Positions 4,643 through 41,133 of a stretch of DNA of 64,000 nt are shown one piece after another; the first letter of the stretch is position 1; each line of letters starts with the position of its first letter. The DNA lies in NCBI RefSeq assembly GCF_003334255.1, contig NZ_QOWU01000021.1. One strand, given 5' to 3'. This stretch comes from Escherichia coli (GTDB taxonomy: Bacteria > Pseudomonadota > Gammaproteobacteria > Enterobacterales > Enterobacteriaceae). Made by a program: the position numbers and the translations under genes. The notes beneath the pieces were generated by a model. The model was not told the origin of the DNA. It searched no databases and saw nothing but the letters and a program-made list of their open reading frames with translations.

Positions 4643-4741
4643 GCCTGATGCGCTACGCTTATCAGGCCTACACGTATCCTGCAATATATTGAATTTGCAG
4701 GTTTTTGTAGGCCGGATAAGGCGTTCACGCCGCATCCGGCA
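4643..4741. repeat. REP pair (BIME) in fbaA-mscS intergenic region, flanked by ~35-bp direct repeats at 4604-4638 and 4771-4805
   Basis: gcctgatgcgctacgcttatcaggcctac and inverted gtaggccggataaggcgttcacgccgcatccggca are typical REP palindromes. Confidence 0.85.
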
Positions 4742-7403: not shown

Positions 7404-7569
7404 TATTTGTAGCCCGACGTATTCGTCGGGCTAATGCCTTTACCCGATATTGCCTCCTTTTTCTGTAATTTTCTGTAAAACCATGACGTAATCACCTATC
7501 TTTGCTCGCGGTTTCATCAAGGATAGGCTGACTGAAACGGTTAAGCGGACAAGGATGCGGGGGAGGGGG

Positions 7570-8466
7570 ATGGACATTTTTATTTCGAAAAAGATGCGCA
7601 ATTTCATTTTATTAGCGCAAACCAATAATATTGCCCGGGCGGCAGAAAAAATCCATATGACGGCTTCGCCATTTGGTAAAAGCATTGCCGCGCTGGAAGA
7701 ACAAATTGGCTATACGCTATTTACCCGCAAAGATAATAATATCAGCCTCAATAAAGCCGGACAGGAACTGTATCAAAAACTGTTCCCGGTTTATCAACGG
7801 CTTTCTGCGATTGATAATGAAATCCATAACTCAGGGCGTCGTTCACGAGAAATTGTGATTGGCATAGATAATACTTATCCGACAATTATTTTCGATCAGT
7901 TGATTAGTCTCGGAGATAAGTATGAAGGCGTGACCGCCCAGCCAGTTGAGTTCAGCGAAAATGGCGTTATCGATAATCTTTTTGACCGCCAGTTAGATTT
8001 TATTATCTCCCCACAGCATGTATCTGCACGAGTTCAGGAACTGGAAAACCTGACTATCAGTGAACTACCACCGCTGCGATTAGGCTTTCTCGTTTCTCGC
8101 CGTTATGAAGAGCGACAAGAGCAAGAGCTGCTTCAGGAGCTGCCCTGGCTACAAATGCGCTTTCAGAACCGGGCCAACTTCGAAGCAATGATTGATGCGA
8201 ATATGCGACCTTGTGGGATCAATCCAACCATTATTTATCGTCCCTACAGTTTTATGGCCAAAATCAGCGCCGTGGAGCGCGGACATTTTCTGACGGTGAT
8301 CCCGCATTTTGCCTGGCGACTGGTGAATCCGGCAACGCTGAAATATTTTGATGCACCGCACAGGCCGATGTATATGCAGGAATATCTTTATTCAATCAGA
8401 AATCATCGTTATACCGCCACGATGCTTCAGCATATTGCTGAAGATCGTGACGGGACGAGTCATTAA
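7570..8466 (+). CDS. ygfI: LysR-family transcriptional regulator YgfI
   Basis: ORF 7555..8466 trimmed to MDIFISKKMRNFILLAQTNNIARAAEKIHMTASPFGKSI (LysR-type HTH); stop overlaps convergent scpC stop. Confidence 0.88.
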   Translation: MDIFISKKMRNFILLAQTNNIARAAEKIHMTASPFGKSIAALEEQIGYTLFTRKDNNISLNKAGQELYQKLFPVYQRLSAIDNEIHNSGRRSREIVIGIDNTYPTIIFDQLISLGDKYEGVTAQPVEFSENGVIDNLFDRQLDFIISPQHVSARVQELENLTISELPPLRLGFLVSRRYEERQEQELLQELPWLQMRFQNRANFEAMIDANMRPCGINPTIIYRPYSFMAKISAVERGHFLTVIPHFAWRLVNPATLKYFDAPHRPMYMQEYLYSIRNHRYTATMLQHIAEDRDGTSH

Positions 8467-36636: not shown

Positions 36637-38370
36637 GTGAAACAACAGATACAACTTCGTCGCCGTGAAGTCGATGAAACGGCAGACTTGCCCGCTGAAT
36701 TGCCTCCCTTGCTGCGCCGTTTATACGCCAGCCGGGGAGTACGCAGTGCGCAAGAACTGGAACGCAGTGTTAAAGGTATGCTGCCCTGGCAGCAACTGAG
36801 CGGCGTCGAAAAGGCCGTTGAGATCCTTTACAACGCTTTTCGCGAAGGAACGCGGATTATTGTGGTCGGTGATTTCGACGCCGACGGCGCGACCAGCACG
36901 GCTCTAAGCGTGCTGGCGATGCGCTCGCTTGGTTGCAGCAATATCGACTACCTGGTACCAAACCGTTTCGAAGACGGTTACGGCTTAAGCCCGGAAGTGG
37001 TCGATCAGGCCCATGCCCGTGGCGCGCAGTTAATTGTCACGGTGGATAACGGTATTTCCTCCCATGCGGGGGTTGAGCACGCTCGCTCGTTGGGCATCCC
37101 GGTTATTGTTACCGATCACCATTTGCCAGGCGACACATTACCCGCAGCGGAAGCGATCATTAACCCTAACTTGCGCGACTGTAATTTCCCGTCGAAATCA
37201 CTGGCAGGCGTGGGTGTGGCGTTTTATCTGATGCTGGCGCTGCGCACCTTTTTGCGCGATCAGGGCTGGTTTGATGAGCGTAACATCGCAATTCCTAACC
37301 TGGCAGAACTGCTGGATCTGGTCGCGCTGGGGACAGTGGCGGACGTCGTGCCGCTGGACGCTAATAATCGCATTCTGACCTGGCAGGGGATGAGTCGCAT
37401 CCGAGCCGGAAAGTGCCGTCCGGGGATTAAAGCGCTGCTTGAAGTGGCAAACCGTGATGCACAAAAACTCGCCGCCAGCGATTTAGGTTTTGCGCTGGGG
37501 CCACGTCTCAATGCTGCCGGACGACTGGACGATATGTCCGTCGGTGTGGCGCTGTTGTTGTGCGACAACATCGGCGAAGCGCGCGTGCTGGCAAATGAAC
37601 TCGATGCGCTAAACCAGACGCGAAAAGAGATCGAACAAGGAATGCAAATTGAAGCCCTGACCCTGTGCGAGAAACTGGAGCGCAGCCGTGACACGCTACC
37701 CGGCGGGCTGGCAATGTATCACCCCGAATGGCATCAGGGCGTTGTCGGTATTCTGGCTTCGCGCATCAAAGAGCGTTTTCACCGTCCGGTTATCGCGTTT
37801 GCGCCAGCAGGTGACGGTACGCTGAAAGGTTCCGGTCGCTCCATTCAGGGGCTGCATATGCGTGATGCGCTGGAGCGATTAGACACACTCTACCCTGGCA
37901 TGATGCTGAAGTTTGGCGGTCATGCGATGGCGGCGGGTTTGTCGCTGGAAGAGGATAAATTCAAACTCTTTCAACAACGGTTTGGCGAACTGGTTACTGA
38001 GTGGCTGGACCCTTCGCTATTGCAAGGCGAAGTGGTATCAGACGGTCCGTTAAGCCCGGCCGAAATGACCATGGAAGTGGCGCAGCTGCTGCGCGATGCT
38101 GGCCCGTGGGGGCAGATGTTCCCGGAGCCGCTGTTTGACGGTCATTTCCGTCTGCTGCAACAGCGGCTGGTGGGCGAACGTCATTTGAAGGTGATGGTCG
38201 AACCGGTCGGCGGCGGTCCACTGCTGGATGGTATTGCTTTTAATGTCGATACCGCCCTCTGGCCGGATAACGGCGTGCGCGAAGTGCAACTGGCTTATAA
38301 GCTCGATATCAACGAGTTTCGCGGCAACCGCAGCCTGCAAATTATCATCGACAATATCTGGCCAATTTAG
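36637..38370 (+). CDS. recJ: ssDNA-specific 5'-3' exonuclease RecJ
   Basis: 577-aa ORF MKQQIQLRRREVDETADLPAELPPLLRRLYASRGV... with DHH motifs; GTG start. Confidence 0.96.
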   Translation: MKQQIQLRRREVDETADLPAELPPLLRRLYASRGVRSAQELERSVKGMLPWQQLSGVEKAVEILYNAFREGTRIIVVGDFDADGATSTALSVLAMRSLGCSNIDYLVPNRFEDGYGLSPEVVDQAHARGAQLIVTVDNGISSHAGVEHARSLGIPVIVTDHHLPGDTLPAAEAIINPNLRDCNFPSKSLAGVGVAFYLMLALRTFLRDQGWFDERNIAIPNLAELLDLVALGTVADVVPLDANNRILTWQGMSRIRAGKCRPGIKALLEVANRDAQKLAASDLGFALGPRLNAAGRLDDMSVGVALLLCDNIGEARVLANELDALNQTRKEIEQGMQIEALTLCEKLERSRDTLPGGLAMYHPEWHQGVVGILASRIKERFHRPVIAFAPAGDGTLKGSGRSIQGLHMRDALERLDTLYPGMMLKFGGHAMAAGLSLEEDKFKLFQQRFGELVTEWLDPSLLQGEVVSDGPLSPAEMTMEVAQLLRDAGPWGQMFPEPLFDGHFRLLQQRLVGERHLKVMVEPVGGGPLLDGIAFNVDTALWPDNGVREVQLAYKLDINEFRGNRSLQIIIDNIWPI

Positions 38371-38460
38371 CGTCATCTTCTCTATAAAAAAGAGCGTGGA
38401 TTGGGTACAATCCCGCTCTTATCACCGCATTTTGACTAGCTCAATAAAAGAAATCAGACC

Positions 38461-39559
38461 ATGTTTGAAATTAATCCGGTAAATAATCGCATTCAGGACC
38501 TCACGGAACGCTCCGACGTTCTTAGGGGGTATCTTTGACTACGACGCCAAGAAAGAGCGTCTGGAAGAAGTAAACGCCGAGCTGGAACAGCCGGATGTCT
38601 GGAACGAACCCGAACGCGCACAGGCGCTGGGTAAAGAGCGTTCCTCCCTCGAAGCCGTTGTCGACACCCTCGACCAAATGAAACAGGGGCTGGAAGATGT
38701 TTCTGGTCTGCTGGAACTGGCTGTAGAAGCTGACGACGAAGAAACCTTTAACGAAGCCGTTGCTGAACTCGACGCCCTGGAAGAAAAACTGGCGCAGCTT
38801 GAGTTCCGCCGTATGTTCTCTGGCGAATATGACAGCGCCGACTGCTACCTCGATATTCAGGCGGGGTCTGGCGGTACGGAAGCACAGGACTGGGCGAGCA
38901 TGCTTGAGCGTATGTATCTGCGCTGGGCAGAATCGCGTGGTTTCAAAACTGAAATCATCGAAGAGTCGGAAGGTGAAGTGGCGGGTATTAAATCCGTGAC
39001 GATCAAAATCTCCGGCGATTACGCTTACGGCTGGCTGCGTACAGAAACCGGCGTTCACCGCCTGGTGCGTAAAAGCCCGTTTGACTCCGGCGGTCGTCGC
39101 CACACGTCGTTCAGCTCCGCGTTTGTTTATCCGGAAGTTGATGATGATATTGATATCGAAATCAACCCGGCGGATCTGCGCATTGACGTTTATCGCGCGT
39201 CCGGCGCGGGCGGTCAGCACGTTAACCGTACCGAATCTGCGGTGCGTATTACCCACATCCCGACCGGGATCGTGACCCAGTGCCAGAACGACCGTTCCCA
39301 GCACAAGAACAAAGATCAGGCCATGAAGCAGATGAAAGCGAAGCTTTATGAACTGGAGATGCAGAAGAAAAATGCCGAGAAACAGGCGATGGAAGATAAC
39401 AAATCCGACATCGGCTGGGGCAGCCAGATTCGTTCTTATGTCCTTGATGACTCCCGCATTAAAGATCTGCGCACCGGGGTAGAAACCCGCAACACGCAGG
39501 CCGTGCTGGACGGCAGCCTGGATCAATTTATCGAAGCAAGTTTGAAAGCAGGGTTATGA
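38461..39559 (+). CDS. prfB: peptide chain release factor 2, expressed by programmed +1 ribosomal frameshift
   Basis: Frame 0 ATG 38461 ... CTT(38533-35) TGA(38536-38); +1 frame from GAC 38537 continues [18 protein letters not shown]... to stop 39559 (GGQ motif [11 protein letters not shown]); internal SD-like AGGGGG precedes CTT TGA C. Confidence 0.93.
38521..38539 (+). other. prfB: prfB +1 frameshift recoding site (SD-like AGGGGG + CUU UGA C)
   Basis: cttagggggtatctttgac; in-frame UGA at codon 26 with the downstream ORF in +1 frame. Confidence 0.92.
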
Positions 39560-39568
39560 GGAACCAAC

Positions 39569-41086
39569 ATGTCTGAACAACACGCACAGGGCGCTGACGC
39601 GGTAGTCGATCTTAACAATGAACTGAAAACGCGTCGTGAGAAGCTGGCGAACCTGCGCGAGCAGGGGATTGCCTTCCCGAACGATTTCCGTCGCGATCAT
39701 ACCTCTGACCAATTGCACGCAGAATTCGACGGCAAAGAGAACGAAGAACTGGAAGCGCTGAACATCGAAGTCGCCGTTGCTGGCCGCATGATGACCCGTC
39801 GTATTATGGGTAAAGCGTCTTTCGTTACCCTGCAGGACGTTGGCGGTCGCATTCAGCTGTACGTTGCCCGTGACGATCTCCCGGAAGGCGTTTATAACGA
39901 GCAGTTCAAAAAATGGGACCTCGGCGACATCCTCGGCGCGAAAGGTAAGCTGTTCAAAACCAAAACCGGCGAACTGTCTATCCACTGCACCGAGTTGCGT
40001 CTGCTGACCAAAGCACTGCGTCCGCTGCCGGATAAATTCCACGGCTTGCAGGATCAGGAAGCGCGCTATCGTCAGCGTTATCTCGATCTCATCTCCAACG
40101 ATGAATCCCGCAACACCTTTAAAGTGCGCTCGCAGATCCTCTCTGGTATTCGCCAGTTCATGGTGAACCGCGGCTTTATGGAAGTTGAAACGCCGATGAT
40201 GCAGGTGATCCCTGGCGGTGCCGCTGCGCGTCCGTTTATCACCCACCATAACGCGCTGGATCTCGACATGTACCTGCGTATCGCGCCGGAACTGTACCTC
40301 AAGCGTCTGGTGGTTGGTGGCTTCGAGCGTGTATTCGAAATCAACCGTAACTTCCGTAACGAAGGTATTTCCGTACGTCATAACCCAGAGTTCACCATGA
40401 TGGAACTCTACATGGCTTACGCAGATTACAAAGATCTGATCGAGCTGACCGAATCGCTGTTCCGTACTCTGGCACAGGATATTCTCGGTAAGACGGAAGT
40501 GACCTACGGCGACGTGACGCTGGACTTCGGTAAACCGTTCGAAAAACTGACCATGCGTGAAGCGATCAAGAAATATCGCCCGGAAACCGACATGGCGGAT
40601 CTGGACAACTTCGACTCTGCGAAAGCAATTGCTGAATCTATCGGCATCCACGTTGAGAAGAGCTGGGGTCTGGGCCGTATCGTTACCGAGATCTTCGAAG
40701 AAGTGGCAGAAGCACATCTGATTCAGCCGACCTTCATTACTGAATATCCGGCAGAAGTTTCTCCGCTGGCGCGTCGTAACGACGTTAACCCGGAAATCAC
40801 AGACCGCTTTGAGTTCTTCATTGGTGGTCGTGAAATCGGTAACGGCTTTAGCGAGCTGAATGACGCGGAAGATCAGGCGCAACGCTTCCTGGATCAGGTT
40901 GCCGCGAAAGACGCAGGTGACGACGAAGCGATGTTCTACGATGAAGATTACGTCACCGCACTGGAACATGGCTTACCGCCGACAGCAGGTCTGGGAATTG
41001 GTATCGACCGTATGGTAATGCTGTTCACCAACAGCCATACCATCCGCGACGTTATTCTGTTCCCGGCGATGCGTCCGGTAAAATAA
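39569..41086 (+). CDS. lysS: lysyl-tRNA synthetase (constitutive)
   Basis: 505-aa [36 protein letters not shown]...; class II aaRS; 9 nt after prfB stop. Confidence 0.96.
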
Positions 41087-41104: not shown

Positions 41105-41133
41105 AACCCCGGCAAATGTCGGGGTTTTTTTAT
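41105..41133 (+). terminator. intrinsic terminator after lysS (overlaps idi 3' end)
   Basis: ccccggcaaatgtcgggg hairpin followed by 8 T. Confidence 0.85.

Follow-up and report, generated by a model that had tools for sequence, protein, structure and literature searches.

The 64-kb stretch of Escherichia coli DNA analyzed here (hereafter, the window) carries on its plus strand a gene identified from its predicted product as prfB, which encodes the class-I release factor 2 (RF2) and is flanked by recJ and lysS (Table 1). The stop codon of prfB and the start codon of lysS are separated by 9 nt, and a terminator-like hairpin with a T-run, the only such structure on the plus strand, lies after lysS at 41105–41126. 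The short gap and the position of this sole terminator 3' of lysS fit a co-transcription of prfB and lysS. A simple promoter scan of the region upstream of prfB revealed no match to the sigma-70 consensus; the sole match of the scan is located inside prfB, and since the match count was below the shuffle expectation, it is uninformative on transcription. Elsewhere in the window, four RNA families on the minus strand scored above the Rfam gathering score, including 6S/SsrS RNA (18577–18760, 139.8 bits), SIB RNA, the antitoxin of a small toxin pair (17778–17928, 133.8 bits), naRNA4 (32271–32348, 75 bits), and ES036 (4664–4706, 47.3 bits).

Table 1. Features of the prfB recoding locus and its neighboring genes (positions in the window).
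Feature	Position	Strand	Basis
recJ, upstream neighbor	36637..38370	+	NF008290 RecJ, 1192 bits; RefSeq agrees
prfB frame-0 segment, codons 1–25 (Met1–Leu25)	38461..38535	+	Aligns to residues 1–25 of solved E. coli RF2
Internal Shine-Dalgarno-like AGGGGG (Arg22 AGG, Gly23 GGG)	38524..38529	+	Anti-SD pairing, rare AGG
3-nt spacer TAT (Tyr24), predicted E-site codon at the moment of shift	38530..38532	+	Sequence
Slippery run CTT-T, predicted tRNA-Leu re-pairing CUU to UUU	38533..38536	+	Defined as slippery in PMC12421855
In-frame RF2-specific stop TGA (codon 26) and following C, weak termination context	38536..38539	+	Sequence; PMC12421855
prfB +1-frame segment, Asp26–Leu365, stop TGA 39557–39559	38537..39559	+	Frames, alignment, model score
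lysS, downstream neighbor	39569..41086	+	NF009101 lysine--tRNA ligase, 1110 bits

Read in frame 0 from the ATG at 38461, prfB contains 25 sense codons, the last being the CTT at 38533–38535. Codons 1–13 are ATG TTT GAA ATT AAT CCG GTA AAT AAT CGC ATT CAG GAC, and codons 14–26 are CTC ACG GAA CGC TCC GAC GTT CTT AGG GGG TAT CTT TGA, in which the final TGA (38536–38538) is a premature in-frame stop followed by a C at 38539. Three bases, TAT, separate the AGGGGG hexamer from the CTT. A scripted frame check found no stop in the +1 frame between 38483 and the TGA at 39557–39559. No ATG, GTG, or TTG occurs in this frame from 38483 until the ATG at 38678, and the mechanical ORF list accordingly gives only one ORF at the locus, of 293 aa (38678–39559). 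The features that mark membership among the +1 sites of prfB are present, namely a TGA near codon 26, CTTT, TGAC, and AGGGGG at a distance of 3 nt. The initial annotation had described a frame 0 of 25 codons from ATG 38461 to the UGA, an SD-like AGGGGG 3 nt upstream of CUU UGA C, a continuation of RF2 in the +1 frame to 39559, and an ORF track holding only the 293-aa downstream ORF. Every position in these statements is exact to the base, and the ORF list agrees with the last of them.

Joining 38461–38535 to 38537–39559 yields a product of 365 aa with the SPF motif at residue 205 and the GGQ motif at residue 250. The joined product aligned with residues 1–365 of crystallized E. coli RF2 (PDB 1gqe_A) with one substitution (E-value 8e-241) and likewise differed by one substitution from 1ml5_Z; both alignments were uninterrupted at residues 20–30, across the junction LRGYL|DYDAK. 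It scored 525.9 bits against the NCBIfam prfB model TIGR00020 (cut-off 370) and about 305 bits against the RF1 models, below their cut-offs. The translation and alignment of the joined segments had been proposed earlier as a check, and it gave the expected result of 365 aa, with the whole of residues 1–365 matched and one difference. The earlier assignment of the gene to prfB with the RF2 recoding site is borne out by the match to 1gqe_A, the TIGR00020 score, the canonical spacing of the elements, and the note carried by RefSeq records.

The same alignments bear on a reading of the locus as two genes, a 25-codon leader ORF and a shorter RF2 of 293 aa initiated at ATG 38678. Such an arrangement is what mechanical ORF finding returns, and at least 1000 contigs in public collections carry the 293-aa product under the name RF2. 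However, the 25 frame-0 codons encode residues 1–25 of the same crystallized RF2, and the 47 codons at 38537–38677, which are open in the +1 frame but contain no start codon, encode residues 26–72 of the full-length protein. A 293-aa product would also be without most of RF2 domain 1. The two-gene arrangement is therefore considered very improbable, and a single prfB gene read through a +1 frameshift is preferred.

As for the annotation of this single gene, RefSeq records with the same DNA present prfB as a two-piece CDS with the note "programmed frameshift," and the NCBIfam model TIGR00020 is typed as "exception." The exact 365-aa product was found on at least 500 contigs and includes the UniProt entry RF2_ECO27, and the exact 293-aa truncated product belongs to a cluster of 3,560 sequences in public protein collections. 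It had been anticipated that automated annotation would mis-call prfB. This applies to plain ORF callers, as the 293-aa entries demonstrate, but not to NCBI PGAP, which gives the correct two-piece CDS. The gene is correctly modelled as join(38461..38535, 38537..39559), and a plain ORF finder applied here would return an RF2 without residues 1–72, a truncation that is common among entries in public collections.

The motif AGGGGG-N3-CTTTGAC, with one mismatch allowed, matched once in the 64-kb window, compared with 0.07 matches expected, and a match was contained in seven of 100 shuffled sequences. By itself, the motif count in the window is thus only modestly above chance. The sole match coincides exactly with the frame change of the RF2 reading frame. 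Codon usage was referred to the 33 long ORFs of the window (15,234 codons), in which AGG makes up 1.2% of the Arg codons, GGG 12% of the Gly codons, and CTT 9% of the Leu codons; the joint codon-choice probability of AGG, GGG, and CTT at the site is 1.3e-4. Within prfB, AGG is used once among 25 Arg codons, and that once at the site. Of all positions in prfB, the stretch from 38523 is predicted to pair most strongly with the 16S anti-SD (−12.6 kcal/mol), the anti-SD being taken from the textbook 3' end of E. coli 16S rRNA, as the window is without an rRNA gene. The rare AGG, the codon-choice probability, and the strongest anti-SD pairing all count for selection at the nucleotide level at the site. 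A second internal SD-like hexamer in prfB, AGGTGA (38971–38976, plus strand), showed the next-strongest predicted anti-SD pairing (−11.6 kcal/mol); as it is followed by neither a slippery run nor a stop, it would be a pause site at most. An in-frame AGG GGG pair occurs in only one other long ORF of the window, at 7555–8466 (plus strand), and since the full motif matches only once in the window, this pair is not followed by CTTTGA.

Many E. coli chromosomes match the region 38380–39600 (1221 bases) with 100% identity. Exactly one copy of prfB, located between recJ and lysS, was found in each of 5,426 complete E. coli genomes with an identity of 95–100%. The 16-nt site was invariant in all five E. 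coli copies fetched, which include a copy of 98.4% identity, among the most divergent intact ones, and a lesioned copy of 96.7%. One of the 5,426 copies is on a record labelled as a plasmid and possibly represents a mislabelled replicon. In the complete genome of E. coli NIPH17_0036 (NZ_AP024561.1), about 26 nt are missing within prfB, in the part equivalent to 38801–38863 of the window; the programmed site is intact, but the annotation given is that of a pseudogene ("PCRF domain-containing protein; internal stop"). The gap in this essential gene represents either an assembly error or a lesion.

The K-12 prfB site is identical to that of the window (CTT AGG GGG TAT CTT TGA C, codons 21–26), and the gene has the same neighbors, recJ and lysS. 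Over the 1221-nt query, the K-12 record is 99.9% identical, with one difference that lies inside prfB away from the site. Base 39197 is G in the window, encoding Ala246, while it is A in K-12, encoding Thr246. Ala246 is the normal form of E. coli RF2 and terminates better, and Thr246 is a peculiarity of K-12 (PMC5373646). The window therefore derives from an E. coli other than K-12 that has the normal RF2 allele. The +1 site itself was described in K-12 prfB by Craigen and Caskey in 1986 (as cited in PMC5373646) and has been reviewed since (PMC12421855). It is very unlikely that the Ala246 allele moves the feedback set-point importantly beyond its measured effect, or that the released 25-residue peptide has a function of its own, and no finding of the present analysis speaks for either.

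To place the site beyond E. coli, species-representative genomes were scanned for TAGGGGG-N3-CTTTGAC with the spacer left free, which returned at least 120 loci, and for each match frame 0 was joined to the +1 frame and the product compared with the RF2 of the window. Among the 120 matches listed, 98 are RF2 homologs (97 by blastp and one by tblastn), 20 lie outside RF2 genes, and two loci have too little downstream DNA to judge. The RF2 homologs among the matches listed share amino acid identities of 25–98% (median 64%) with the window RF2, and in most of them the stop lies 24–30 codons from the first possible start. SPF and GGQ are both present in all 76 complete joined products among the matches listed. 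The carriers among the matches listed belong to many orders of Gammaproteobacteria, Bacilli, Clostridia, one Gemmatimonadetes, one Geobacteraceae, and others. The prfB sites of these bacteria share with the window the AGGGGG, the 3-nt spacer, the CTTTGA with C after it, and a position near codon 25. They differ in the spacer codon, which among the 97 RF2 matches listed is TAT in 47, TCT in 35, TAC in 12, and another triplet in three, with the window having the commonest form, TAT. The 20 non-RF2 matches listed were taken as chance occurrences and set aside; they have scattered spacers and occur, among other hosts, in Actinomycetota, Verrucomicrobia, Cyanobacteria, and an archaeon. As the motif was itself the selection criterion of the scan, the result gives the locations of the motif and not its prevalence. 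In a survey of 12,753 genomes, 8,164 (64%) were found to need the shift, and AGGGGG, the 3-nt spacing, CTTTGA, and the C after it were almost invariant (PMC12421855). One of the matched genes, prfB of Psychrobacillus sp. NEAU-3TGS (locus L052), has a second frame break beside an A-run (CCCAAAAATAATT) about 30 codons past the site, and tblastn finds RF2 residues 59–363 in another frame. This second break is probably a homopolymer error of the assembly.

A one-base sequencing or assembly error would look like a frame break in an essential gene, as would a real inactivating mutation that had turned prfB into a pseudogene, and errors of this kind are known in prfB records, as in the NIPH17_0036 and Psychrobacillus genes described above. 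However, every E. coli copy fetched shows this break together with an identical 16-nt site, the gene is kept as a single, highly similar copy in each complete genome of the species, and the break stands at the same place in the RF2 genes of 98 other species among the matches listed. The flanking SD-like, slippery, and TGA-C elements accompany it in every case, an arrangement that would not arise from random errors. An error or inactivation is thus exceedingly improbable as the source of the break.

The reading preferred here, with an estimated probability of about 98%, is that of a programmed site at which ribosomes on E. coli prfB shift by +1 as a means of autoregulation, and no observation made here speaks against it. 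The present analysis establishes which sequence elements are present and how they are spaced, what the joined product is, that the DNA is identical to E. coli prfB, and that the same site occurs in the RF2 genes of distant bacteria. The shifting itself, its frequency, and its dependence on the RF2 level rest on earlier published experiments with this identical sequence. A ribosome initiating at ATG 38461 would reach a state in which CUU (codon 25) occupies the P site and UGA the A site. UGA-C is a poor termination signal that is read by RF2 only. When RF2 is plentiful, termination at the UGA would release the 25-residue peptide, and when RF2 is scarce, the ribosome would wait at the UGA. Pairing of AGGGGG with the 16S anti-SD at an overly short spacing would then destabilize or displace the E-site tRNA and favor the slip, upon which the peptidyl-tRNA-Leu would move from CUU to UUU and GAC (Asp26) would enter the A site. 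Translation in the +1 frame would then yield the full 365-aa RF2. As a high RF2 level would lead to termination and a low level to the shift, RF2 would set the rate of its own synthesis. It has been described that RF2 termination at UGA-C competes with the +1 slip of tRNA-Leu, the internal SD helping the latter (PMC12421855). Ribosome profiling at the endogenous locus gave estimates of about 28% shifting for the K-12 allele and 21% for the Ala246 allele in the K-12 background, and deletion of RF3 in the K-12 RF2 background gave about 47% frameshifting (PMC5373646).

A downstream stimulatory structure was considered and rejected. The predicted fold of the downstream RNA (38536–38635, −30.4 kcal/mol, z-score −1.77) is unremarkable, as 11 of 200 shuffled sequences folded as well. 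An Rfam search of 38380–38700 at a permissive threshold returned only a chance-level match to asX6 (14.9 bits, E-value 4.1), and the absence of an Rfam family at the site reflects the content of the library and not the site. The unremarkable fold and the lack of an Rfam family fit a signal that acts via rRNA pairing and codon context and not through a folded element.

Transcriptional realignment at homopolymer runs is a known recoding route, and in principle transcriptional slippage or editing at the T-run might correct the frame at the mRNA level, with no ribosomal shift involved. This explanation, too, is exceedingly improbable, as the T-run is only three bases long (CTTTGA), far below the runs with known polymerase slippage, the anti-SD hexamer at a fixed 3-nt spacing, the RF2-specific stop, and the C after it are sensible only for a ribosome, and the drop in ribosome occupancy from the first to the second ORF of prfB, seen by ribosome profiling, responds to the release-factor genotype (PMC5373646).

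The locus, found here in an ordinary E. coli other than K-12, is the textbook recoding site of prfB and has already been fully described. prfB is a classic case of translational autoregulation by recoding, and its occurrence in this E. coli adds nothing new and matters only for annotation. Among recoding sites in E. coli, the −1 shift of dnaX is counted as one of the three established frameshifts (PMC5373646). Like prfB, dnaX is a chromosomal recoding site with an internal SD-like stimulator. It differs from prfB in the −1 direction, the heptamer A AAA AAG, and an SD located further upstream, and it needs a downstream hairpin and generates two products with no feedback control. The eukaryotic antizyme (OAZ) site also makes a +1 shift at an in-frame UGA and uses the shift as the sensor in a negative feedback loop. 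However, the OAZ site senses polyamine and not its own product acting as a release factor, and the gene families are unrelated. The stimulators differ as well: OAZ relies on a pseudoknot downstream and on further elements upstream, and pairing with rRNA plays no part.
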